From: Candidatus Altiarchaeota archaeon
GTDB lineage: Archaea > Altiarchaeota > Altiarchaeia > IMC4 > SCGC-AAA252-I15
DNA length: 39,928 nt
Assembly: GCA_043804895.1 (NCBI GenBank)
Contig: JAZDIN010000002.1
Location: 1-39,928 of the forward strand
Direction of reading: 5' to 3'
The notes under the pieces are model-generated. The model saw only the letters and a list, made by a program, of their open reading frames with translations. It was not told where the DNA came from and ran no database searches. The position numbers were made by a program, and so were the translations under genes. This document shows, one piece after another, positions 733-27,819 of this stretch (position 1 is its first letter; each line of letters starts with the position of its first letter).

Positions 733-1935
733 TCACAAACCGAGGAAGAAGAAGATTGTCGGGATAATGAGTACTCCCATTAAGTGCGTCCTGCTGACGC
801 CAGACATTATCGGTAGCATCCCAATAGCGGTCGACACAATTGAAATCAAAAGGCCTAGCCATCCTGTCATTACGTAGACGAGTGTCAGGATGAAGGCGAC
901 CACAGCGGCGGACAGGAGCCTGTAGTCTACAAGCTTGAAATACATGTTCGCCCTCTTGCCTATCTCTATGTGCAGGAACAGGGCGATGACGGCGCTCACA
1001 CAGAATACTCCGACGAACAGTACCATCAGACTGTAGTCCATTTCAAGTATCCTGCCTATCATGACAGCCACTCCGCTTCTAGCGTTGTTAATGGTGTATA
1101 GTGATATTATCGAGTACATAGCATCTGAGGTGTTTATCGCGCTCACTGAGACGAGGAACCCCCGGAGGCTTGAGCCGAATACGCCTGACATGATTATGCC
1201 AATCTGTGAGGGGCTCATAGCAGGGAGGACTCCGACAACCATCCCCCCTATCGCTCCAGATAATCCCCCACCTATGACCTCCCTGTCAAACTCTACTCTT
1301 GCGTACTCCTCCTGAGGTATGTTCCTCGGCTCGCTTTTCATGGAATACAATATACTACTCAAACCGAACAGGCCTGCGAAGACTGGGAACAACACATAAG
1401 TGCTTGAAATTCCCTCAAGGTTCAATGTCAATGACCCGAGTGCGCCAGAGACTAGGAATATAATCGCAGCCCACAACCTACCGCTCCACCCCCCCTCCCG
1501 CATCATCAGGAAGAGTGCAGCTAACGCTATGACGTACACGACGAATCCTCGAATCCAATGGTATATAATCGGTATCACATACAAGGCAGGGAGGAGTAAG
1601 AGGAGGCCGAAGACCACTCCCATAAGACATCCGTATCCTGTGAGCTTAACTGCTTCTAACGCTTTGCCTTCCATCAGAAGGCGATGCGCCGGCAGTATGC
1701 TCAAAGCGGTCTCCTCCTCAGGAACCCCCAAGAATATAGCTGGTATGAAGTCGAGGAATTGCTGCGTGATGGCCATCGCAACCATGAATACGCTAAACTC
1801 AATAGCATCCAAACCCAAGCCGGCGTACAGGCTCAAACCGATTAGACAGACGGTGTTAACATGCAATCCCGGAGTCAAACCTGTGATTGTACCGGCTAGG
1901 CATCCGGCCAGGATGAGGGGAAGGTACTCCAACAT
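733..1935 (-). CDS. TctA-family (tripartite tricarboxylate transporter-like) permease, archaeal type
   Basis: Polytopic protein with GLTPGLHVN, F.DFIPAIFLGVP and LPAHRLLMEGK motifs. ATG at 1935 preferred; the ORF extends to 1959. Confidence 0.85.
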   Translation of the reverse strand: MLEYLPLILAGCLAGTITGLTPGLHVNTVCLIGLSLYAGLGLDAIEFSVFMVAMAITQQFLDFIPAIFLGVPEEETALSILPAHRLLMEGKALEAVKLTGYGCLMGVVFGLLLLLPALYVIPIIYHWIRGFVVYVIALAALFLMMREGGWSGRLWAAIIFLVSGALGSLTLNLEGISSTYVLFPVFAGLFGLSSILYSMKSEPRNIPQEEYARVEFDREVIGGGLSGAIGGMVVGVLPAMSPSQIGIIMSGVFGSSLRGFLVSVSAINTSDAMYSIISLYTINNARSGVAVMIGRILEMDYSLMVLFVGVFCVSAVIALFLHIEIGKRANMYFKLVDYRLLSAAVVAFILTLVYVMTGWLGLLISIVSTAIGMLPIMSGVSRTHLMGVLIIPTIFFFLGL

Positions 1936-1973
1936 CAAATAAATATAACCTAATCGCATTATTAGTCCAAGAG

Positions 1974-2536: not shown

Positions 2537-3136
2537 TTAATCACTCAAAATCTGTTCAATAACAGCCCTAAACTCCCCCCCCTCATATCCAGGCAGGTTC
2601 CTAACATAATAACCGTTGCCAGTCCTCGTGAACCTACAACCGAAGCTGAAATACGGGACAGTGTTCATGTTACCCCCCTCGAAGATCGTATACTCCTCCT
2701 TAGGTATCACCCCCTCCACAAAATCCGTTAACACATCATCATTCCTGTCGAAAAACCAATGGTGCGCGACTATGCTCCCGTTGCCAACATACCCCCCCAC
2801 AACATTGTCAAAGATTGGGCCGCTCCAGGTGCAGTGTTCGCAGTCTGTCTTGCTGTACATCCTAACTATCGGTTTCCCATCCACCTTGCAGATCTCTCCG
2901 CCGTTGTCCTTGAACGTCTTTATGAGCTTGCTGAGTGTTGTCGTGGTCGTAGACCTCGGTTCCGATAATGTCGTCGGTGGATTAGTTGGTTCCGTCGACG
3001 TGGTAGTTGGCATATAGTAGGTGAAATCGACATCCTCAACTGTCGTCGTGGTTGTCTCATGCGGAGTCTTTTGGGTTTCCCCTCCAATGCACCCGCAGGC
3101 TAAAAATCCAACCAACAGGAGAGCCAACCTTTTCAT
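2537..3136 (-). CDS. Secreted or lipid-anchored thioredoxin-like protein with a Thr-rich linker
   Basis: MKR + hydrophobic stretch + lipobox-like LACGC; poly-Thr linker; CEHC active-site motif; VPYF cis-Pro motif. Confidence 0.8.
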   Translation of the reverse strand: MKRLALLLVGFLACGCIGGETQKTPHETTTTTVEDVDFTYYMPTTTSTEPTNPPTTLSEPRSTTTTTLSKLIKTFKDNGGEICKVDGKPIVRMYSKTDCEHCTWSGPIFDNVVGGYVGNGSIVAHHWFFDRNDDVLTDFVEGVIPKEEYTIFEGGNMNTVPYFSFGCRFTRTGNGYYVRNLPGYEGGEFRAVIEQILSD

Positions 3137-3231
3137 GTACCTGACAATAGTTTTCAAACCCTATATACCCTTACTTTCCAGAAAGACTCTAACATATTTT
3201 TACCCCCCGGAGACAATACCTAAACTCCAAG

Positions 3232-5421
3232 ATGAAGGTTTGCAAAAGCAACAAGGAATTGGTAAAATTCGACAGGAACAAGATAATAAAGACTTGCATG
3301 TCAGCTGGAGCACCGATTGCCCTTGCCACCCAAATAGCATCGGAGGTGCGTAAGGAAGGCTATGACGGCATGACGACTGATGAGATTCGGATGCGCGTCT
3401 ATATCAAGCTGAAGAAGGTCAATCCTGAGATAGCGGAACAGTACGTCTACCGCTCTAACATGAAGGTCCGCACCTCCTCGAACATCCTCGACTACTTCCA
3501 GTCCTCCAGGATTGTCGACTCGCTTGTGAAGGAAACCCATGTCGACAGGTCGTTCGCTGAGACAATAGCTAAGGAGGTCGAGAAGGAATTGGGCAGGATG
3601 AGACTGAACTATGTCACTGCGCCGCTCATCCGTGAGATAGTCAACGTGAAGCTCCTTGAACACGGCATGGAGTCGGTGCGTGCAAGATACACCCGTCTTG
3701 GAATGCCAGTCTACGACGTTAAAAGACTCCTCGAGGAGGGGTCTAAGGAGATACCCCAATACAGTCCTGAGGCAGTCCACAAGGTCATGAGCGACCAGAT
3801 TGCAAGGGAATACTCGCTCCTCAACGTCCTGCCGATAGATCTAGCAGACGCGCACATGACTGGACAGATACACATCCACGACCTAAACCACTTCCCCCTC
3901 CGGCCTACGACATTCTCCCATGATATGAGGTTCTTCCTAACGCGCGGATTGAAGGTCGACGGAGTAGGCGAGTACACAGCCACCGCCGGCCCTGCAAAGC
4001 GTCCATCCTCAGCTTTCATGCACGCAGTCAAGGTGCTGGTAGGCGGACAAGCTGACTGCTCCAGGGAGCAGTGCATCGAAGACTTTAACGTGATACTCGC
4101 CCCATACGTCCGCGGCCTAGAATACGCTGAAGTCAAGCAGCTGGTGCAGATGCTATTCTACGAGATATCGCAGACGTCAGTCGGCCGCGGCGGTCAGGCG
4201 GTTTATGCTACGCTCTCATGCGACACCTCCGTGCCAGAGCACCTTAAGGATGTATCTGCAGTCCAGCCTGGCGGGAAGATGCAAAAAAGCGTTACATACT
4301 CAGATTTCGCATCAGAAGCTGAATCCATATTCAAAGCCTTCTGCGATGTCGGCCTTGAAGGCGACTCATTCCATAAGCCTTTCATCTACCCTAAAATCCT
4401 ATTCAACGTCACAGGCAGACGTTCAGACGAGCTGATGCTAAAGGCTGCGGAGCTGACCTGCAAGTTCGGGCTACCATACTTCCTAAACACTGGGAAGCAC
4501 TTCTACGGACCACGCCGGGGTACTATACAACATGTGACTGTGAATCTGCCACAGGTTGGTTACAAGAGTAACGGCAACATGTTCGAAGTCCTAGATAACA
4601 GGATGAAGAAGGCAGCTGAAGTCCTGCTTTTGAAGAGGAAGGTCATCTCAAAGAATCTCGAACGCAATCTACTCCCATTCCTGAAGCAGAAGGCAGAAGG
4701 TCTCAGGTACTATAACCCAGACAAGCAGCTCCATGTCATATCCTATTCAGGTTTGAACGAGCTTGTCATGCAGGAGACCGGCTCTGACCTTAGGGTAAGG
4801 CCTGGCGTCAGATTCGGCCTGAAGGTCGTGAAGGCGATGATGAAGTCTGTGAAGACCTTCGCTGATGAGAGTGACTTGGACTTCATACTCACAGGAGACC
4901 CGAAGGGCATATGCTACGCGAGCTTCGCAGCCTTTGATGTCGCCAGATACGGCAGCAAAGCTCAAGTCAACGGAGGCAAAAACCCATACTACAGTAAAGG
5001 CCATTACGTGAATGCCCGCCGCCTCCAAGACAAACTGAACACAGAAGGAAGGTTCAACCTCGCAGTGAGTGGCAGGACCACGACTCACTTAAGGCTTGCC
5101 GAAGGCGAATACACAGCAGATGAGACGCTTAAATTCGTCAACCGGCTCCTTTACCGCAAAGACCTGCGTTACCTGGCTGTTTCCCGCACGCTAACCATAT
5201 GCTCCAAATGCGGGTTCACACAACTGACCATAACCGGAAAATGCTGCAAATGCAACAGTCGCATGGTTGGCGTCTGGAGCCGCGACAGCGGCCACATACA
5301 GAACACTAGGACATGGAATTCGGCTCAGAGGCAATCATACATGGACGAATACAGGTACACCCTAGGAGGACAGGGTGTGAAACCGTCCTCAAGGCAGCGC
5401 AGGTTCATCGGCAGACAGTAA
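3232..5421 (+). CDS. nrdD: Class III (anaerobic) ribonucleotide reductase homologue with two ATP cones; catalytic motifs degenerate
   Basis: Two N-terminal ATP-cone repeats, YTRLGMPVYD, AHMTGQIHIHDL, VTVNLP, SGLNE and a C-terminal CSKC...CCKC Zn site. The symbol indicates homology only (see findings). Confidence 0.9.
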   Translation: MKVCKSNKELVKFDRNKIIKTCMSAGAPIALATQIASEVRKEGYDGMTTDEIRMRVYIKLKKVNPEIAEQYVYRSNMKVRTSSNILDYFQSSRIVDSLVKETHVDRSFAETIAKEVEKELGRMRLNYVTAPLIREIVNVKLLEHGMESVRARYTRLGMPVYDVKRLLEEGSKEIPQYSPEAVHKVMSDQIAREYSLLNVLPIDLADAHMTGQIHIHDLNHFPLRPTTFSHDMRFFLTRGLKVDGVGEYTATAGPAKRPSSAFMHAVKVLVGGQADCSREQCIEDFNVILAPYVRGLEYAEVKQLVQMLFYEISQTSVGRGGQAVYATLSCDTSVPEHLKDVSAVQPGGKMQKSVTYSDFASEAESIFKAFCDVGLEGDSFHKPFIYPKILFNVTGRRSDELMLKAAELTCKFGLPYFLNTGKHFYGPRRGTIQHVTVNLPQVGYKSNGNMFEVLDNRMKKAAEVLLLKRKVISKNLERNLLPFLKQKAEGLRYYNPDKQLHVISYSGLNELVMQETGSDLRVRPGVRFGLKVVKAMMKSVKTFADESDLDFILTGDPKGICYASFAAFDVARYGSKAQVNGGKNPYYSKGHYVNARRLQDKLNTEGRFNLAVSGRTTTHLRLAEGEYTADETLKFVNRLLYRKDLRYLAVSRTLTICSKCGFTQLTITGKCCKCNSRMVGVWSRDSGHIQNTRTWNSAQRQSYMDEYRYTLGGQGVKPSSRQRRFIGRQ

Positions 5422-5422
5422 C

Positions 5423-6706
5423 ATGAACGTGAAATATCAATCATGGGATAATCCACGTTGTGAGATATTGAAGTCGATGAGCAAGCTACGTCCGATGAGC
5501 AGGCGCTTGTGTCTCCAATGTAAGGGTGGCAGACTACTGTGTGGCAACAGGTCCTGTCCGCTCCTGGCGAAAATCGACCTACAGAATCCGGTCCAAGACC
5601 GCCTTAAGGAACAGATGTTCGGGCCCTCCCCCTCGGTCTTCGTAGGCTGGAACGACTACCCCTCAGTGTATGTCGGCCCCATGACTTCGCTGGAGGAGGC
5701 CGGCTGCGACACGTTCGACAACCCGGGCTTATGGTATGGTATGGGGTTCGACGACATAATCAGGGCGCGTTCCCTTCTTGTCAGAGGCAAACAGAAGCAT
5801 CCCATAATGGAGCGAAGTAGGTTCGTTGATGAGATGCAGGAGATAGCGCTGTCAGTTCGGCCGGTTGACGTTGAAGCCCACTACACTAAGAGGCCTCATT
5901 TTAGCCTCTCCTTCTCCCCAATCAGCCAGCCTATGGGTGCGTCAGGGGAGTTGAAGAGTTTCTCAGTCGCAGACAATCCTGTCATCCCCCAGAAGGTGGA
6001 TTCGGTTGTCTCTGACGAGCTCACAGCCGGGGAGCAGGTGGTGGAACTTTTTGACCGTAACATGGACGTCTACTACCTGAGCAACGTCCTATCCTCCGGG
6101 GCGCTTGGTATGGAAGACGCTAAAAGGTTGGTTCCGACAAGGTGGGGTATAACAGCAGTCGACGACATACTCGGTAGGGAGCTGATGAAGCGCATACGTG
6201 ACTACCCTGAGCTTCCGGAAATCCAAGTCTACGGGAACACATACCTCGGCAACCACTTCGAAATACTACTCATCCCCGGTGCATGGGAGTTCGAACAGTT
6301 CGAAGCATGGGCTCCCAACACCCTGTGGACGATGTCAAACGACCAGTACACGATAGTGGAAGAGCATGAAGGCCATGGGGGACGATGGGATTACGCATAC
6401 AATGAAGGAGGCGGCTACTATGCGGGCCGATTCGCCGCCGCGGAGGCCCTCAACCGGATGGGCAGGCAGGCCCGCTGCGTCATATTCAGGGAAATCTACG
6501 ACTCCTATGTGATGCCTGTGGGAGTGTGGGAGGTGCGGGAGAACGTCAGGAAGGCGCTGGAGAAACCCCCAACCAAATTCAGGACGCTGCCGGAGGCTTT
6601 GGACGACATAAGCCAGAGGCTCCTAATCAACATAAACTGTTACATACTGAAATCCCAGATTCTACGCCAGCGTAGGATAACGGACTACACCCGATTCTCG
6701 GGGTAA
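5423..6706 (+). CDS. nreA: Nre-family archaeal DNA repair protein
   Basis: N-terminal CLQCKG..LLCG...CP, SPSVFVG...YP.V.VGP, RLVPTRWGITAVD, GGYYA, MPVGVWEVRENVR, and a C-terminal PIP-like QRRITDY. True start may be 5477 or 5494. Confidence 0.93.
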   Translation: MNVKYQSWDNPRCEILKSMSKLRPMSRRLCLQCKGGRLLCGNRSCPLLAKIDLQNPVQDRLKEQMFGPSPSVFVGWNDYPSVYVGPMTSLEEAGCDTFDNPGLWYGMGFDDIIRARSLLVRGKQKHPIMERSRFVDEMQEIALSVRPVDVEAHYTKRPHFSLSFSPISQPMGASGELKSFSVADNPVIPQKVDSVVSDELTAGEQVVELFDRNMDVYYLSNVLSSGALGMEDAKRLVPTRWGITAVDDILGRELMKRIRDYPELPEIQVYGNTYLGNHFEILLIPGAWEFEQFEAWAPNTLWTMSNDQYTIVEEHEGHGGRWDYAYNEGGGYYAGRFAAAEALNRMGRQARCVIFREIYDSYVMPVGVWEVRENVRKALEKPPTKFRTLPEALDDISQRLLININCYILKSQILRQRRITDYTRFSG

Positions 6707-8346
6707 AATTCACTCGCATTCTCGTACTCTCTCAGGCTCATGTTTGCCCTACCCTGCATCTTATACACTTCCTCAAGCATTATATGCGTTTTAGCCTCAT
6801 CAGGGGTTATCTCTATGGACCGCCTGAACTCTTCAGCCGCGGCGTCTGTCATACCCTGCTTAACATATATGATTCCGAGATTGTTGTGGGCTTCTTCGAG
6901 TTCCGGTTTAATTTTTATCGCAGTTTTGAATTCATTAACAGCCAAATCTACCCGCCCCTGTTTTGTGTATATAATCCCCAGGTTGTTGTGGGCTTCAGCG
7001 ATGTCTGGGTTTATATCAAGGGTTTTTTTGAACTCTTCAGTCGCGGCATCTGCCATACCATGTCGGGCGTATTCAATCCCCAAGTCTAAATGCGGGAGCG
7101 CACTCCCTGGCGACCGTTCAGCAGTCTTAGACCACAGGGTCATCTGGTCCCTCCACTCATAATTCCTTGAAATTGTCAGTCCAGCGTATGCTAGAACAAC
7201 GAAGACAAAAACCAATGCCAGCCACTTATCTTTCCTAAAACCCTGGTAGACAACCCACGAAAAAAGGAGGCAGAAGCCAAAGGACGGCAGATATAAGTAC
7301 CTTTCCGCCATGACGACTGGTTGTGGGATTATGTTGGAGACCGGGGATAATCCGATAATAAACCACCCTATGCAAAAGGAAACGATAGGATACCTTCTAA
7401 GACACTTCACCATGATAACAACCAGGGTCAATATCACGGCCATTGAGAAGAGAACGTCAGAATCTAAGATGGTCTGGGCAAATACTACCCCCATAAGATT
7501 CGAGTCTATGTGGGAGGAAATGCCTCCAGGCAGTGTGTGTTCCAAGCTCAGGCCAACCGGGAACAGGGTCAACGAGACGTACTTGACAAAGGCCTTGGAC
7601 ATAGTGAGCATCGTGTAATAAAAGCTACCGGCAAAATATTGCCCCCGGGGTAACTCCAAGATGAGCGACCTAACAAGGAAGTAAAAGGCAGCTAGCATGA
7701 AATAGGGAATCTTCACCCAATATCCCCCGACTGAACGTCTTTTAGCCTTCCTGAAGCAGGCATCATACAAGACTATCATCAGCGGGAGGGTGAGCGTAAC
7801 CTCATACGTCAAAAACGCCAATACCGCAAATGCTGCTGAAAAAACATACTCAACTCTTCTCCAATCCCCCCCAGACCTCAAATACAGCAGAAAGGAGGAG
7901 AGGAAGAAAGCCACACCAATAACGTCAAAGCTTGCAGTCATGAACGTAACCGCTTCCGTATGAACCGGGTGAACGCCAAATACTATCGCAGTCATAAGCG
8001 CAATCACTCCGGACTCAGCAACCTCCAAGGCGATGAAATAGACGAGTATTGTGCAGGTCAGATGCACAAAAAGCGACTGAAGGTGGTAGCCTGCGGGGTT
8101 CACACCCCACAACCAGTAACCCACTGCATAAAACACCCCCCTTACCGGCCTGTAGACTCCGCTATGGCCATGCGGCAGCTCTCCAGTGAAGAACGAGGGA
8201 ATGTTGCCAAGACTTCTTGTTGCATTCCATTTAACAATAAAGGTGTAGTCGTCGTAGACGAATTCATTCTGGAAAATATTCGAGTACGCCAGCGAAGTCA
8301 CTACCGCAACCAAAACACAGTGGAAGACCACATCATACTCGACCAT
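6685..8346 (-). CDS. TMTC-like GT-C glycosyltransferase membrane protein with C-terminal TPR repeats
   Basis: FVYDD loop, YRP, HPVHTEAV and AERYLYLPS motifs, many TM helices, and about 4 TPRs (AHNNLGIIY). Confidence 0.85.
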   Translation of the reverse strand: MVEYDVVFHCVLVAVVTSLAYSNIFQNEFVYDDYTFIVKWNATRSLGNIPSFFTGELPHGHSGVYRPVRGVFYAVGYWLWGVNPAGYHLQSLFVHLTCTILVYFIALEVAESGVIALMTAIVFGVHPVHTEAVTFMTASFDVIGVAFFLSSFLLYLRSGGDWRRVEYVFSAAFAVLAFLTYEVTLTLPLMIVLYDACFRKAKRRSVGGYWVKIPYFMLAAFYFLVRSLILELPRGQYFAGSFYYTMLTMSKAFVKYVSLTLFPVGLSLEHTLPGGISSHIDSNLMGVVFAQTILDSDVLFSMAVILTLVVIMVKCLRRYPIVSFCIGWFIIGLSPVSNIIPQPVVMAERYLYLPSFGFCLLFSWVVYQGFRKDKWLALVFVFVVLAYAGLTISRNYEWRDQMTLWSKTAERSPGSALPHLDLGIEYARHGMADAATEEFKKTLDINPDIAEAHNNLGIIYTKQGRVDLAVNEFKTAIKIKPELEEAHNNLGIIYVKQGMTDAAAEEFRRSIEITPDEAKTHIMLEEVYKMQGRANMSLREYENASEFYPENRV

Positions 8347-8379
8347 CTTCAATATTCAATCCCTTTCCCAATAAATATG

Positions 8380-8592
8380 TCAGCACACTCGGCCGTTGCT
8401 AGCATTCAGTTCCCACCGTGCGCAGTATCTTATGCAAAACTCAGCGAGGTTTTTGAATCCTATGTCGAATCCCATAGCCAGCATCTTCTTGCACACGTTA
8501 GAGTCGGGAGCCTCGTCAGGTAGGCCGTAGGCTTTAATGTACATCCTGTCGCATTCTCTAATCTGCTTTAAGACTTTTTCCGTCTCATCCAT
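8380..8592 (-). CDS. Small Cys-containing hypothetical protein
   Basis: 70-aa ORF co-oriented with the TMTC-like gene. Confidence 0.5.
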   Translation of the reverse strand: MDETEKVLKQIRECDRMYIKAYGLPDEAPDSNVCKKMLAMGFDIGFKNLAEFCIRYCARWELNASNGRVC

Positions 8593-8716
8593 GCCATGTC
8601 CCCCGCGCGGCAGCTACTGCAAGCAGGACTCCGAGCATTATCAGAATCTGCAGGACGTCTGACGATGATGCCCCATTCACTGCCACGCACGTGTTAGTCC
8701 CGCTTATATACGCCAT
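8585..8716 (-). CDS. Possible 43-aa single-TM peptide
   Basis: Hand translation MAYISGTNTCVAVNGASSSDVLQILIMLGVLLAVAAARGTWHG*; overlaps the start of the next ORF by 8 nt. Confidence 0.3.
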   Translation of the reverse strand: MAYISGTNTCVAVNGASSSDVLQILIMLGVLLAVAAARGTWHG

Positions 8717-8797
8717 CTTACCATAATCCCTATTCGAAAGCCCCTGAGATAATCCTTAGGCTAGAATAGTGTCAAATTAGGGTTCCAATGAGGTAAA

Positions 8798-9436
8798 ATG
8801 AGGTCATCCGCGCTAATCGCCATATTGGTTGCTGTCTCCTTTACCTTAAGTCTTTACTCCAATTCTCTCCTGCCTGAGACAGTCGCCTCACACTGGGATG
8901 CGCAAGGCCAGCCGAACGGTTACATGCCAAAAACATGGCTTCTATTCCTGATGCCAGCCATCGCAGCCGCAGCTGCTCTAATGATGTATGCACTACCCCT
9001 CCTAGACCCCTTGAAGGCGAACATAGACAAGTTCAGGCCCCACTACGACAGGTTCATCGTCCTCGTCGTCTTGTTCCTGCTTTACCTGCACATACTAACA
9101 CTCCTTTGGAATCTCGGCTACACCTTCAACATGGTCGCAGCCATGGTGCCCGGCCTCGCAGCATTATTCTACTCCTCCGGCATCCTCATAGAGAATGCGA
9201 AGAGGAACTGGTTCATGGGAATAAGAACCCCCTGGACGCTCTCCAGCGACAAAGTCTGGGACAAAACCCACAAAATCGGAGCCAAACTCTTCAAAGCCTC
9301 AGCGGCTATATCCTTGGTTGGGCTGGTACTCCAAGACTACGCAATCTACCTAATCATCGCCCCAATACTACTATCCTCATTCTACGTAGTCGCCTACTCC
9401 TACCTAGAATACAAGAAAGAGAAGCGAAACCAGTAA
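8798..9436 (+). CDS. SdpI-family / DUF1648 membrane protein
   Basis: LPETVASHW...G.PNGY (DUF1648) and N.FMGIRTPWTLSSDKVWDKTH (SdpI) motifs; GAGGT SD. Confidence 0.9.
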   Translation: MRSSALIAILVAVSFTLSLYSNSLLPETVASHWDAQGQPNGYMPKTWLLFLMPAIAAAAALMMYALPLLDPLKANIDKFRPHYDRFIVLVVLFLLYLHILTLLWNLGYTFNMVAAMVPGLAALFYSSGILIENAKRNWFMGIRTPWTLSSDKVWDKTHKIGAKLFKASAAISLVGLVLQDYAIYLIIAPILLSSFYVVAYSYLEYKKEKRNQ

Positions 9437-11735: not shown

Positions 11736-14700
11736 ATGAGAATAAACCGCATTGACACAAAAGCATACGCGATTTCAGGCGAAGCTGAAGAGTCGGCGAT
11801 AGATTACTTCAAGGAGAAGGCTGCTAAGTTCGAAAAGGAGTCTAAGTCTGAGGCGTCAATCACGCTCGAATACCATTACTCGCCGTTGGCCGTGTTCTCG
11901 GCAGTCAAATACGACAAGGAGGGTAAAGGCATCGTGATACGTGGGATGGAGAATGAGTTCCACGTTGGCTTGGACGACGCATGCTTCTACGTTTTCAGCT
12001 CCAAAGGATACGGCGAGGCTACGAAGAGCATATTCATAAAATCAAACGAAGCGAGCATAGAGAAGATAGACTTCCTCCTTAAACTGGCATCCCTCTCCCC
12101 AAAGGCTCTTCAAACGCTTGGCTACCTCCTCGACCAGGGCACCATAAACTTCGACAAGCTTGACATGCCCTCTCAGACTGCAGCTAAGGAGCTTGCAGGA
12201 AGGAAATACGCGGACATATACAAGCCTGTCGACAGGGAGGGCGACCTCACCGTCGTTTTCAGGGAGATTATCGAATTCCAGCCTGTCACGCCGGTATACA
12301 AAGTCAAGGCCATGGTGCCGATACCAAGGTTCACGAACACGATATACAACCTCTCCTCTAGACTTGAGTTGACGGACGTTGTGGAAGACAAAGTGGAACT
12401 CGGCAGGATAACACAATCCCCTGACAAGATAAAGTACCTTCTTGGGACGCTCTTCAATTGCGGCCTCCACCTGAAGAGGGTAGTATACGTGCCGTACCTT
12501 GAGTGCACGTTCAAGTGGGGCGGTAAACAGTCTAAAGAAATAAGGCATATACCCTGCCTCAAGAAGTCGAAAACAAAAAACTACCAGAAGCCAAAAAAAC
12601 TGAAAACCCTCCTAATCGGAGTCAAAGGCTATGGACTCGACTCCATACCGTTCGAGGATGTGGAGATAAAATTCTCTAATGTCGCAGGAATGGCAGAGGT
12701 GAAGGAGAGGATAAGGGAGGGGATAATCTACCCGATAATCCATCCGGAACTGTCCAAGGAGTTCGGAAGCAAAGGCGGTGGCGGTGTTCTCCTATACGGC
12801 CCCCCAGGTTGCGGGAAAACATACATAATGCGTGCCACAGTCGGTGAGGCAGGGGTCAACTTCTACACCATAGGCGTGCAGGAGATAGTCGGAGACGACA
12901 TGGAAGCGTCGGCGAAGAGGTTGGATGAGTCGTTCAACGAGGCGAGGCAGGGTGCGCCCTCGATACTATTCTTCGACGAGATTGACGCACTCGGCGGCAG
13001 CAGGAAACCAGGCCAGTCTGGGGCTGAACATAGGCTCGTCAACCAGTTCCTCACTAACATGGAAGGCGTCGGAGCGTCAAACGAGAACGTGCTCATAGTA
13101 GGCTCCACGAACGCGCCATGGGATATGGATCCTGCCCTCAGGAGGGCAGGCCGTTTCACCTTGCAGATTTTTATCCCCCCACCGGATGCGGAGGCGAGGC
13201 TCGCATTGTTCGAGGTGCACACCAAAGACAGGCCCCTCGCCAAGGACGTAAAATTCAACCGCCTCGTCGAACTGACTGAAAATTACTCGTCAGCTGACAT
13301 AACCGCATTATGCGACGAGGCTGCGAAGATACCTTGGCGGGCGAGCGTCCACGGCGAAGACAGGCGCGAAATCTCCATGGCGGACTTCATACTAGCCCTC
13401 AACGAGACGGAATCCTCTCTCATCCCATGGCTGCGCCTAGCAGAGAAGCAGCTTAGAGAAAGTGGCGAATCAGACCTCTTCCCAGAACTGGCGGACTATG
13501 TGTTTAAGCGCGCGGGCGGCATAGAGATGGTCACACAGCCGACAATGAAATTCTCTGACGTGGCTGGACTAGATGACGTGAAGGAGGAGATAAAAAACAA
13601 GATAGTCTACCCCCTCAAAAACCCGGAAATGTCCAAGAAATACGGCCGCAAACCAGGGGGAGGCGTACTACTCTACGGGCCACCAGGCTGCGGTAAAACA
13701 TACATAGCGAAGGCGACGGCAGGGGAATGTGAAGCCTCATTCTTCAACGTGAAGGCCACAGACCTTTTATCCCCTGAGGAGGGTGTGACTGAGAAGAGGC
13801 TGCACAGCATCTTCGAGCGTGCCAGCCGCAACACTCCTGCGATAATATTCTTCGACGAGATTGATGCCATAGCAGGTCACAGGAGATCCTCAGGCGGTGC
13901 TGAACGTCGGCTAATCAATCAGTTTCTGACTGAGATGGACGGGTTCGAGAAGAAGGAGGGTGTTGTCGTGTTGGCTGCCACTAATGCTCCGTGGGATATC
14001 GATCCTGCATTACGTCGCGCTGGCCGTTTCAGCGATCAAATATTCCTACCCCCACCAGACGGGAAAAGCAGGGAGGAGGTGTTCAGGATACACGCCCAAG
14101 GTAGGCCGCTATCAGAGGACGTTAACTTCAGCGAACTCTCATCGCTTACAGACGGCTACAGTTCAGCTGACATCGCGCTCATCTGCGACGAGGCCTCTAA
14201 GATTCCGTGGAGGGAGGGGATGGAATCAGGCACTGCAAGGAACGTATCGAACGCAGACTTCAAGGTCGTCATATCAGAACACAAGCCCTCGATAACGCCA
14301 TGGCTGAAGCAGGCTGAGAAACAACTCAGGGAAAGCGGAGAATCAGAGTTATACACCGAACTCGCTGAATACGTCTTCAAACGCGCCGGAGGCCTGGAGG
14401 CTGCATCCAAACCTAAGATGAACTTCTCAGACGTCGGAGGCCTCGTTGAGGTGAAGGAGGAGATAAAAAACAAGATAGTCTACCCGCTCAAGAATCCGGA
14501 GTTAGCCAAAGAATACGGTCGCACAATCGCAGGAGGCATACTATTCTACGGTCCGCCGGGTTGCGGTAAAACATACGTCGCTCGCGCTACGGCAGGCGAG
14601 TGTGAGGCGACATTCTATAATGTGACGATAACGGACCTGTTATCCCCTGAGGAGGGTGTGACTGAGAAGAAACTCCACAGCATATTCGAGCGAGCCTCAA

Positions 14701-15272
14701 GGAACACGCCGGCAGTCGTGTTCTTCGACGAAATAGACGCTATTGCAGGGTTGCGTTCCTCAGCGAAGGGCGGTGCTGAACGTCGGCTAATCAATCAGTT
14801 TCTGACTGAGATGGACGGGTTCGAGAAGAAGGAGGGTGTTGTCGTGTTGGCTGCCACCAATGCTCCCTGGGATATCGATCCTGCATTACGTCGCGCTGGC
14901 CGTTTCAGCGATCAAATATTCCTACCCCCACCAGACGGTAAAAGCAGGGAGGAAATCTTCAGGATACACACGAAGAACATCCCACTCGGAGGCGACATCA
15001 ACATAGGCGAACTCTCCTTGCAGACAGACGGCTACAGCTCATCAGACATCAAACTCATCTGCGACGAGGCTGCGAAGATTCCATGGAAGGAGACGATGGA
15101 ATCAGGCAAGAAACGCCCGGTCACGATGGCCAACTTCACCAAAGTCCTCACACAGCGAAAATCATCAATCACAGCATGGTTCAAACAAGCTGAGAAGGAA
15201 CTGAAGGCTGCAGACGAGGAAACGATGTACCCGGAACTCACCGCGGCCATAGAGAAGATGAGGGGAGCGTAG
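11736..15272 (+). CDS. AAA+ ATPase with three tandem Cdc48/Vps4-like modules and an unknown N-terminal region of about 300 aa
   Basis: Three copies each of Walker A GPPGCGKT, Walker B FFDEIDA, sensor-1 TNAPW and SRH DPALRRAGRF. Confidence 0.95.
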   Translation: MRINRIDTKAYAISGEAEESAIDYFKEKAAKFEKESKSEASITLEYHYSPLAVFSAVKYDKEGKGIVIRGMENEFHVGLDDACFYVFSSKGYGEATKSIFIKSNEASIEKIDFLLKLASLSPKALQTLGYLLDQGTINFDKLDMPSQTAAKELAGRKYADIYKPVDREGDLTVVFREIIEFQPVTPVYKVKAMVPIPRFTNTIYNLSSRLELTDVVEDKVELGRITQSPDKIKYLLGTLFNCGLHLKRVVYVPYLECTFKWGGKQSKEIRHIPCLKKSKTKNYQKPKKLKTLLIGVKGYGLDSIPFEDVEIKFSNVAGMAEVKERIREGIIYPIIHPELSKEFGSKGGGGVLLYGPPGCGKTYIMRATVGEAGVNFYTIGVQEIVGDDMEASAKRLDESFNEARQGAPSILFFDEIDALGGSRKPGQSGAEHRLVNQFLTNMEGVGASNENVLIVGSTNAPWDMDPALRRAGRFTLQIFIPPPDAEARLALFEVHTKDRPLAKDVKFNRLVELTENYSSADITALCDEAAKIPWRASVHGEDRREISMADFILALNETESSLIPWLRLAEKQLRESGESDLFPELADYVFKRAGGIEMVTQPTMKFSDVAGLDDVKEEIKNKIVYPLKNPEMSKKYGRKPGGGVLLYGPPGCGKTYIAKATAGECEASFFNVKATDLLSPEEGVTEKRLHSIFERASRNTPAIIFFDEIDAIAGHRRSSGGAERRLINQFLTEMDGFEKKEGVVVLAATNAPWDIDPALRRAGRFSDQIFLPPPDGKSREEVFRIHAQGRPLSEDVNFSELSSLTDGYSSADIALICDEASKIPWREGMESGTARNVSNADFKVVISEHKPSITPWLKQAEKQLRESGESELYTELAEYVFKRAGGLEAASKPKMNFSDVGGLVEVKEEIKNKIVYPLKNPELAKEYGRTIAGGILFYGPPGCGKTYVARATAGECEATFYNVTITDLLSPEEGVTEKKLHSIFERASRNTPAVVFFDEIDAIAGLRSSAKGGAERRLINQFLTEMDGFEKKEGVVVLAATNAPWDIDPALRRAGRFSDQIFLPPPDGKSREEIFRIHTKNIPLGGDINIGELSLQTDGYSSSDIKLICDEAAKIPWKETMESGKKRPVTMANFTKVLTQRKSSITAWFKQAEKELKAADEETMYPELTAAIEKMRGA
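13893..14953 (+). repeat. Intragenic direct repeat, 13893-14077 and 14769-14953 (185 nt, 3 mismatches)
   Basis: Direct comparison of AAA modules 2 and 3; offset 876 nt. Confidence 0.9.
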
Positions 15273-27087: not shown

Positions 27088-27819
27088 TTATGCTGATTCT
27101 ATTCTCGGGGCCAGATAGTATACTACTCTGCCGTCGCCTATTGAATACTCAACCCTGAGGGGTGCGTCGGTCTTCAGGCTTATGCACACGACGCTCGGTA
27201 TCTCCGCTGCTTTGAGTATGTTGTTGAGGTATTCGAGCGAGAACACGGACTTGGATGGTGACTTCACGTTTATGCTCAGGAGTTTGTCCTCAGGGAACTC
27301 TATGTCAGCTGAGCCGGTGTCTCCGTCGCTTTTGATGCTTAAAACCTTCTCAAGCTTGATAGCAACGTGGTTTGATATCAGCTCCGCGTCCTTTAATGCC
27401 TCCTTTATCATGTTCGGGGTTATCTTAACCTCTGATGTGAAGTCGATTTTTGGCTCCTTAGGCGGTGTGGCGTTGGATTCGATTATGGATATCGTGAACT
27501 CCCTCCTCGTCTCGCCGCGGAAGACCATCTTCAGACGGGTGTCCACGCTCAAGTCTATCTTGTCCTCCGGCCTGGACCTCCTTGTTATCTTACTCAACTC
27601 GCCGAAGTCGACTCCCAACGTCAGAGGCTTGTCGCAGTGAAACCTCTCGAACGCCTTCGCAGGCAGCTCGAAGTCGACCAACGCTATCTGACTAGGGTCC
27701 ATAGCCCGAAGTTTAAGGCCTGACGAGTCTATCTGGAACGTGCCTTCGTCTATGAGGGCTGCAATAGCATCTATGCTATTACGCCAGGACTTAGTGTCAT
27801 TAATAGTCGCTTCAAACAT
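27088..27819 (-). CDS. pcn: DNA polymerase sliding clamp PCNA
   Basis: RAMDPSQIAL, FSLEYL and YYLAPRIE motifs. Confidence 0.97.
   Translation of the reverse strand: MFEATINDTKSWRNSIDAIAALIDEGTFQIDSSGLKLRAMDPSQIALVDFELPAKAFERFHCDKPLTLGVDFGELSKITRRSRPEDKIDLSVDTRLKMVFRGETRREFTISIIESNATPPKEPKIDFTSEVKITPNMIKEALKDAELISNHVAIKLEKVLSIKSDGDTGSADIEFPEDKLLSINVKSPSKSVFSLEYLNNILKAAEIPSVVCISLKTDAPLRVEYSIGDGRVVYYLAPRIESA

Follow-up and report, generated by a model that had tools for sequence, protein, structure and literature searches.

The NrdD-like gene and its neighbors

We analyzed a 39,928-bp stretch of contig JAZDIN010000002.1 from the Candidatus Altiarchaeota assembly GCA_043804895.1 (the window, meaning the whole of that stretch), in which a gene on the forward strand (3232..5421) encodes a 729-aa homologue of NrdD, the class III anaerobic ribonucleotide reductase (RNR). 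The open reading frame is uninterrupted, and residues 176 to 705 match the Pfam NRDD domain (PF13597; 4.3e-85, 286.9 bits). Ahead of this domain stand two ATP-cones, both of which exceed the Pfam cut-off of 25.8 bits when scored separately: cone 1 (residues 1 to 72; 3232..3447, +) with 42.3 bits and cone 2 (residues 77 to 154; 3460..3693, +), whose VRTS hairpin is without the usual basic pair, with 33.5 bits. The four cysteines of a C-terminal Zn ribbon are also in place (C657, C660, C671, and C674; 5200..5256, +), and a first-pass annotation made from the sequence alone was thus right to describe an intact NrdD scaffold with two cones and a Zn ribbon. The protein misses the TIGR02487 equivalog model for NrdD (275.5 bits; cut-off, 326.35) and lies far under the cut-offs of the remaining NrdD equivalog models. 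Directly downstream, nreA (5423..6706, +) begins 1 nt past the nrdD-like stop codon and encodes a 427-aa member of the archaeal Nre family (Pfam Nre_N, 9.8e-90; Nre_C, 2.9e-31). On the upstream side lies a gene of the tctA transporter family (733..1959, −; Pfam TctA, 2.4e-48).

An AlphaFold2 model of the protein, built from an 88-row alignment, reached a mean pLDDT (predicted local distance difference test) of 91.2 and a pTM (predicted template modeling score) of 0.85. Its top Foldseek matches were all solved class III RNRs, those of S. thermophilus (9D3X/9DCA), P. copri (8P23 and further entries), T. maritima (4COI and further entries), and phage T4 (1H78 and further entries), with E values between 4e-26 and 1e-16 and template modeling scores, normalized to the target, of 0.6 to 0.75.

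Loss of the catalytic cysteines and rewriting of the active site

We compared catalytic motifs in an alignment of 116 of the 120 best homologues (P0028, P0070, P0074, and P0080 were dropped for length), contrasting 63 canonical sequences with 27 members of the clade around the window protein, here called type A. Canonical sequences carry the motifs RPFCFSHD and NCAGGQG, a finger loop of the form ..ACYQCC.FLMPL.., TPAES, YYTNS, DGGAMSH, two CxxC pairs, and SRITGY. In the window protein and its 27 closest relatives the corresponding stretches read [LI][RK]P[TVS][TS]FSHD, ECSREQ, xPKG[ILV], YYSK[TG]H, NGRTxTH, two CxxC pairs, and SRD[TS]GH, and a gap of ∼27 residues stands in every type A row where the canonical ..ACYQCC.. 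loop would be. A side feature of the same alignment is a C-terminal extension of ∼30 aa past the glycyl-radical domain, ending in G(V/I)NGWxS(D/E)LDF, which many canonical NrdDs of the Altiarchaeales carry (P0029 to P0033, P0036, P0037, P0041, P0046, P0051, and P0060) and which is not found in type A.

Both cysteine sites of the class III mechanism are affected. The active-site Cys of strand beta-A, present in 63/63 canonical sequences, occurs in 0/27 type A members and is replaced by T227 in the RPTTF motif of the window protein (3901..3915, +); an HMMER alignment to the solved NrdD of T. maritima places the Cys of its MPYCF motif on the same residue. The two finger-loop columns hold Cys in 62 to 63 of the 63 canonical sequences and in none of the 27. 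In the window protein, PYFLN (4474-4488, +) precedes the gap, and a short connector (aa 419 to 428; 4486..4515, +) replaces the loop that carries the thiyl Cys, appearing in the AlphaFold2 model as 10 residues that join strands 416-418 and 429-438. The first-pass annotation had reported the lost first Cys and the deleted loop, and both observations hold across the clade. It had taken MGCR as the canonical finger motif, which does not describe the canonical relatives in this lineage, with their double-Cys ..YQCC.. form; that the thiyl Cys is absent from type A is correct all the same.

In the remaining motifs the replacement residues are themselves fixed and not drifting. At 24 positions a residue is conserved in at least 85% of type A and another in at least 85% of canonical sequences, and these switched positions include C to T227, N to E275, GG to R278-E279, AE to K558-G559, I to D685, and Y to H688. 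Within DCSREQC (4054..4074, +; SREQ itself at 4060-4071), where the canonical N-C-A-G-G-Q has become E/D-C-S-R-E-Q, R278 is found in 100% and E279 in 93% of type A members, against G-G in all canonical sequences. DPKGI (4897..4911, +) stands in place of TPAES, with K558 and G559 in 100% of type A and A-E in all canonical forms, while the motif table for the 116 sequences likewise gives YSKG (4990..5001, +) for canonical YTNS/YTNG and GRTTTH (5071..5088, +) for GGAMSH. The SREQ, DPKGI, YSKG, and GRT replacements had been listed in the first-pass annotation, and its coordinates for the altered motifs were all correct.

The four Zn-ribbon cysteines are present in 27/27 type A and 63/63 canonical sequences. 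In the former glycyl-radical loop (RDSGH; 5281..5295, +) canonical R-I-T-G-Y reads R-D-[ST]-G-H in type A, with D in 24/27 and H in 23/27 at the flanks, and the column of G687 is Gly in 27/27; HMMER aligns the Gly of the RxxGY motif in the S. thermophilus, P. copri, and T. maritima enzymes with this same residue. The earlier view that every catalytic motif had been lost, the glycyl-radical site among them, is therefore overstated: it stands for the cysteine sites, the substituted motifs, and the flanks of the loop, but the Gly itself and the Zn ribbon are kept. Nor does the alignment bear out the idea of an enzyme using relocated cysteines (in DCSREQC and GICY), as the clade shows no Cys that sets it apart. 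C276 is shared with 48/63 canonical sequences and C561 with 34/63, and C281 is Cys in just 2/27 type A members. An HMMER alignment of T4 C290 with C410 was set aside as spurious, given that C410 is Cys in 1/27 type A sequences and sits on the helix that precedes the loop deletion.

Activase, second NrdD, and class II RNR

The assembly comprises 1.58 Mb in 71 contigs and is estimated to be 88.7% complete. The window gene is its sole NRDD match, and a profile search of the contigs recovered no NrdG or other glycyl-radical enzyme activase over cut-off, which extends to the whole assembly the earlier observation that no nrdG lies in the window. The best radical S-adenosylmethionine (SAM) matches, all on other contigs, scored 52.9 bits against a cut-off of 131.15 and 25.4 against 126.1. 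We considered the four weak radical-SAM matches as a possible hidden activase and rejected them, their best models being QueE, AmmeMemoRadiSam, SPASM/heme-b-synthase-like, and MiaB-like; only the AmmeMemoRadiSam match passes its curated cut-off.

The same pattern extends across the phylum. TIGR02495 (NrdG) is over cut-off in 27 of 61 genomes, among them 0/9 type A genomes and 0/11 genomes with a second degenerate form (type B, described below), and at E ≤ 1e-20 it is found in 19/22 genomes of a family with canonical NrdD (f6). One genome of the family with degenerate NrdD holds a separate nrdD-nrdG pair; otherwise no NrdG over cut-off was found there. With the window protein as query (P0001), each of the nine type A genomes returned a single NrdD homologue, so that the proposal of a regulatory partner for a real NrdD finds no such NrdD here or in the other eight. 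All of these genomes are incomplete metagenome-assembled genomes (74 to 92% complete for type A).

The genome does encode a class II RNR, on another contig. This NrdJ is 713 aa long, passes NF006417 (1047 bits against 961) as well as TIGR02504, and carries an ATP-cone of its own; its gene adjoins that of a corrinoid adenosyltransferase. PF02867 was detected in 7/9 type A genomes, the two misses being 74% and 81% complete. The supply of deoxynucleoside triphosphates (dNTPs) in the family with degenerate NrdD thus appears to depend on B12-dependent NrdJ. A search of the genome for a canonical nrdD, nrdG, or nrdJ, which the first-pass annotation had proposed, accordingly yields the last of these and neither of the others.

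Because both Cys sites are absent, no activase is found in the assembly, and the score falls under the NrdD cut-off, the window protein is almost certainly inactive as a reductase.

Origin in place and purifying selection

In a 63-row tree (LG+G4) all degenerate Altiarchaeota forms fall into one clade with support of 99, nested within canonical Altiarchaeales NrdDs and on longer branches than these, and type A is monophyletic within it with support of 100. A second tree of 66 rows shows the same nesting; both are IQ-TREE quick searches. By tblastn, tctA is the upstream neighbor of canonical and degenerate nrdD alike in the order, and this shared neighbor makes the degenerate gene a positional orthologue of the enzyme rather than a stray paralogue.

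The degenerate proteins come in two designs. In type A (genera g1, g3, g6, and g11) the finger loop is deleted while the Zn ribbon and Gly loop remain; in type B (genera g4, g5, g7, g8, and g9 and family f5) the finger loop is present without Cys and the whole Zn-ribbon/Gly domain has been cut off. In two other sequences, P0083 and P0089, the beta-A Cys alone is lost (RPYTF), and one Cys of the finger loop, motifs like TPAE, the Zn ribbon, and RITGY persist. These proteins are perhaps intermediates, or else enzymes relying on another reductant; the 63-row tree places them as sister to the degenerate clade, the 66-row tree outside canonical plus degenerate forms.

Orthologues with the same deletion, which the first-pass annotation had suggested looking for, number ∼28 at 55 to 75% identity in one Altiarchaeota family. 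At nine orthologous loci from four genera the reading frames are intact and free of stop codons, with 52 to 72% pairwise identity. We estimated rates of nonsynonymous (dN) and synonymous (dS) substitution by the Nei-Gojobori method, for which dS was defined in 17/36 pairs and saturated in the other 19. In those 17 pairs dN was 0.22 to 0.45, dS 1.0 to 6.3, and dN/dS 0.04 to 0.23, the ratios being rough, upper-range figures owing to saturation of dS; the neighboring nreA gave 0.06 to 0.23 (14/28 pairs). Maintenance by selection rather than decay is borne out by the conserved orthologues, a dN/dS of at most ∼0.2, and the fixed replacement residues. That the protein is functional and kept by selection is well supported, and, if a pseudoenzyme is defined operationally by lost catalytic residues in an intact, conserved gene under purifying selection, it is one.

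Selection has, moreover, changed its target. Mean pairwise identity in type A is 0.68 for cone 1 (0.46 in canonical sequences) and 0.77 for cone 2 (0.67), the latter being the most conserved region of type A, and the order is reversed in the rest of the protein: 0.65 against 0.83 in the N-terminal core, 0.54 against 0.75 in the C-terminal core, and 0.50 against 0.74 in the Zn-ribbon/Gly domain. Constraint has moved from the catalytic barrel in the enzymes to the ATP-cones in the degenerate form. The VRTS residues of cone 2 are near-invariant in degenerate and canonical forms alike.

Coupling to nreA

The window NreA has an N-terminal C4 motif and the C-terminal sequence QRRITDY. As described in PMC4929162, NreA is a PCNA-binding protein that Haloferax requires to repair mitomycin C damage and for which no biochemical activity is known. 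The gene lies directly downstream of the nrdD-like gene at 8/9 type A and 7/10 type B loci, and the distance from the stop codon to the nearest candidate nreA start ranges from −49 to +62 nt at 15 loci of degenerate type. Near canonical nrdD it was found at 3/8 evaluable loci, across gaps of 184, ∼450, and 1691 nt. The presence of nreA beside some canonical genes at these wider gaps indicates that the neighborhood is old and that tight coupling is confined to the degenerate clade.

In family f5 (G008 and G009) the gene immediately downstream of the truncated degenerate nrdD, on its strand, is nrdJ instead of nreA, at a distance of ∼110 nt in G008. The f5 loci are L039 (4222-6081 and 1934-4111) and L040 (1510-3090 and 3419-8125), and their degenerate NrdDs, 647 to 649 aa long, have no cone 1, Ala in place of Cys, and neither Zn ribbon nor Gly loop. 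The nrdJ match of G009 comes in three pieces, as if interrupted by inteins.

Type A C-terminal tails are basic, and 6/27 end in a weak Q-x-x-h-I-x-x-Y resembling a PCNA-interacting peptide (PIP) box (for example, KQRKLITKY). The window protein's own tail (RQRRFIGRQ, in the 5350-5418 region) has no aromatic residue, and a C-terminal PIP box is weakly supported as a general feature. Complex prediction of the NrdD-like core (residues 170 to 729) with NreA scored 0.00 in both runs, a result that gives no answer and is no evidence either way. Among public sequencing runs holding 3232-6706, no RNA run and one DNA run (share, 0.07) were listed, which has no bearing on expression. A PCNA gene is present in the window at 27088-27819 (−), 20 kb from the nrdD-like/nreA pair; with genes for ribosomal proteins L10, L1, and L11, FtsZ, POR, class I LysRS, and enolase nearby, it probably belongs to an ordinary housekeeping context.

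Other Cys-less NrdDs of independent origin

Of a further 145 representative NrdD homologues we examined 80 (length filter, 500 to 830 aa), and many of these are without catalytic Cys. One large group joins a winged helix-turn-helix (wHTH) to one ATP-cone, a Cys-less NrdD scaffold, and a Zn ribbon, with DUF7347 matched in 21/22 representatives, HTH_20 in 16/22, and HTH_5 in 15/22. A scan of species-representative genomes gave 574 confirmed stretches, the best 80 of which were used as loci (L054 to L133); nearly all are from Bathyarchaeia. Among these best 80, the beta-A Cys and the aligned finger Cys were each present in 0/80 and the Gly in 1/80, while the Zn ribbon was present in 80/80.

These genes often stand just before a canonical-looking nrdD. 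A second nrdD lies directly downstream on the same strand at 31/80 wHTH loci (for example, 4001-6217 followed by 6816-8978 at L083), and all 26 of the downstream nrdDs that were checked carry every canonical motif; three further loci of the 80 have an nrdJ core downstream. In the whole genomes checked, the Cys-less and canonical nrdDs adjoin in 3/4. At wHTH loci with callable neighbors, pyrB is a neighbor in 15 and pyrI in 8, although the neighborhood beyond RNR genes is loosely conserved.

The 66-row tree separates four origins of Cys-less NrdD: the wHTH group, P0133/P0145, P0206/P0230/P0239, and the Altiarchaeota clade. The five individually named sequences, some with shortened finger loops, branch inside other canonical NrdD groups, which points to two more independent losses, and on this phylogeny inactive NrdDs appear to have arisen at least four times.

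Comparison with known proteins

The closest comparison is with canonical Altiarchaeales NrdDs such as P0029 and P0032, which have the double-Cys finger loop and two cones. They share with the window protein the fold, domain order, Zn ribbon, and tctA locus, at 45% identity overall and 62% in cone 2. In contrast to them, the window protein is without the beta-A Cys, the finger loop, and the thiyl Cys, its GGQ, TPAES, YTNS, and GGxxxH motifs and Gly flanks are rewritten, and its genome has no NrdG. The Bathyarchaeia family resembles the window protein as a class III scaffold that has no Cys and keeps an ATP-cone and the Zn ribbon, even to the change of GGQ to ..EQ. It differs in that a winged helix replaces cone 1, the finger loop is of normal length but Cys-free, and the Gly is gone, and in being a paralogue upstream of an intact nrdD (31/80), whereas the genome of the window protein encodes no other NrdD homologue.

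To our knowledge, archaea mostly lack NrdR. NrdR is the known route from ATP/dATP levels to regulation (PMC9110341 and PMC12176259). It shares with the window protein an ATP-cone, a Zn ribbon, and the absence of catalysis; unlike it, NrdR is ∼150 aa long with an N-terminal, DNA-binding Zn ribbon, as opposed to a C-terminal ribbon in a 560-aa barrel, and the 11 NCBIfam matches of the window protein at E ≤ 0.01 include no NrdR model. The Bathyarchaeia wHTH family looks like an archaeal counterpart of NrdR.

Yeast Rnr4 and betaherpesvirus R1 homologues such as M45/UL45 are inactive relatives of class I RNR that were kept for other roles. They differ from the window protein in RNR class, in host, and in the roles ascribed to them (a folding partner and a cell-death inhibitor, respectively), and we know of no ATP-cone-centered constraint in either. 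We found no description of catalytically inactive class III RNR homologues, or of the Bathyarchaeia wHTH-NrdD architecture, in the literature searched, in which subscription journals and supplements are poorly covered. The passages searched in PMC2795772, PMC13450708, PMC4390871, and bioRxiv 10.1101/2022.04.23.489257 do not mention a dead NrdD.

A putative nucleotide sensor and its alternatives

The window protein is a direct, same-locus descendant of the Altiarchaeales class III RNR whose career as an enzyme ended in one Altiarchaeota family, where B12-dependent class II RNR appears to make the dNTPs. The fold, both cones, the Zn ribbon, and the glycine loop have been kept while the thiyl Cys, the beta-A Cys, and the finger loop were given up, and fixed polar and basic side chains now fill the old active site (E275, R278, E279, K558, K589, R615, D685, and H688). 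The data show this loss of RNR chemistry as well as purifying selection, positional orthology, and operon coupling. We propose that the protein most likely binds nucleotides without catalysis: its cones, and the N-terminal half that it has kept, would read ATP/dATP and perhaps (d)NTPs, and the nucleotide state would be passed on by protein contacts, most plausibly to the PCNA-binding NreA. We favor nucleotide sensing because constraint has shifted to the cones and because inactive NrdD scaffolds seem to have been reused repeatedly near genes of nucleotide metabolism, and NreA as the output because of the operon coupling. On these grounds we give a noncatalytic nucleotide sensor acting with NreA a probability of roughly one-half; the binding of nucleotides, the signaling role, and the partner are each inferred. 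The first-pass annotation had named a (d)NTP sensor among its candidates, and this is still the best-supported function, by way of cone conservation and the winged-helix fusion family.

Several observations weigh against a sensor that acts with NreA. No domain beyond NRDD and ATP-cone was detected in the window protein by Pfam, and thus no DNA-binding domain. Cone 2, with the basic hairpin pair missing from degenerate and canonical forms alike, may not bind nucleotides at all, and cone 1 carries S6 and V11 at positions that are Arg and Glu in the textbook consensus; canonical Altiarchaeales cones show similar variants. Part of the association with nreA is older than the loss of catalysis and may reflect gene order that was simply inherited, and one type A genome (G034) has no nreA neighbor. 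The winged-helix family is of separate origin and offers an analogy, not a homologous precedent, and the absence of genes from an assembly that is 88.7% complete is not proven. Finally, strict conservation of the remodeled pocket, together with that of the Zn ribbon and Gly loop, would also be compatible with a new site for catalysis or ligand binding that is unrelated to the cones.

This last possibility amounts to a new nonradical enzyme, in which the rewritten site (E275, R278, E279, K558, K589, H591, R615, H619, D685, and H688) would be a catalytic or tight ligand pocket, for a nucleotide or phosphate ester, for example, with the cones as an allosteric switch. The replacements are indeed fixed rather than drifting, a pure cone sensor has no obvious need for the Zn ribbon and Gly loop found in 27/27 members, and type A must retain for some reason a domain that its sister type B shed. 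We nevertheless consider such an enzyme unlikely: constraint is weakest in the C-terminal half (0.50 to 0.54, compared with 0.68 to 0.77 in the cones), the reverse of what real enzymes show, Pfam and NCBIfam scans detected no catalytic motif of any other family, and salt bridges among the charged residues may do no more than fill the room left by the finger loop. An equally improbable explanation makes the protein a structural partner in PCNA-linked repair, a scaffold or chaperone of NreA for which nucleotide sensing is not the point. The overlapping or closely spaced stop and start codons, the frequent adjacency of nreA in both types, the repair role of NreA, which has no established biochemical activity, and the weak PIP-like tail ends all speak for it, but the strongest constraint falls on the ATP-cone pair, the window protein's tail has no aromatic residue, the adjacency is partly ancestral, and the f5 form lies beside nrdJ and not nreA.

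That f5 arrangement speaks for a protein that binds or modulates class II NrdJ or its cofactor supply; the two genes are also 2.8 kb apart in G042 and 13 to 16 kb apart on one contig in G039, G050, and G051. Distances of 13 to 16 kb are ordinary conserved gene order, though, and nrdJ lies on a different contig in this assembly. NrdJ, too, has its own cone, and class II and class III RNR dimers use different interfaces, all of which leaves a partnership with NrdJ rather improbable. We regard as more improbable still that the gene is a slowly decaying, functionless relic or that its product is an RNR or glycyl-radical enzyme still active through unorthodox chemistry. The retained glycine and Zn ribbon and the longer branches of the degenerate clade could be read in these ways, yet decay is at odds with the low dN/dS (with dS saturated) and with intact, 52 to 72% identical frames in nine genomes of four genera, and an active enzyme with the lack of any conserved clade-specific Cys and of an activase over cut-off in all nine type A genomes.

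Extending the sensor proposal beyond Altiarchaeota, inactive class III RNRs may be recurrent readers of the nucleotide pool in archaea with at least four origins. In Bathyarchaeia they would have become winged-helix transcription factors placed before real RNR genes, in the manner of NrdR, and in Altiarchaeota the enzyme itself would have been converted and translationally coupled to nreA, so that ATP/dATP would gate PCNA-linked repair, giving a dNTP checkpoint built from the remains of a former dNTP-making enzyme. We offer this wider scheme tentatively and think it somewhat unlikely as a whole.

Implications and further features of the window

Several clade members are labeled "anaerobic ribonucleoside-triphosphate reductase" in source annotations, and metabolic reconstructions of Altiarchaeota would err for this family if they counted the degenerate NrdD as a functional anaerobic RNR. 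The locus also records the change from enzyme to pseudoenzyme in place, with surviving forms in which only the first Cys is lost (which may be intermediates), in which the protein is truncated, and in which the finger loop is deleted. If the sensor reading is true, the protein would give a handle on the sensing and regulation of dNTP pools in archaea and on the role of NreA. The winged-helix lineage is an experimentally easy parallel.

Two other genes of the window are of interest in their own right. Cdc48-type proteins usually have two AAA stretches; the 1178-aa ATPase encoded at 11736-15272 (+) has three, along with three AAA lid domains. Between tctA and the nrdD-like gene, at 2537-3157 (−), lies a gene for a 206-aa protein that matches no Pfam family and has a lipoprotein-like N terminus, a Thr-rich linker, and a CEHC motif. 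This protein may be secreted and thioredoxin-like, and its gene occupies this position in genera g1 and g11 only (42 to 53% identity).

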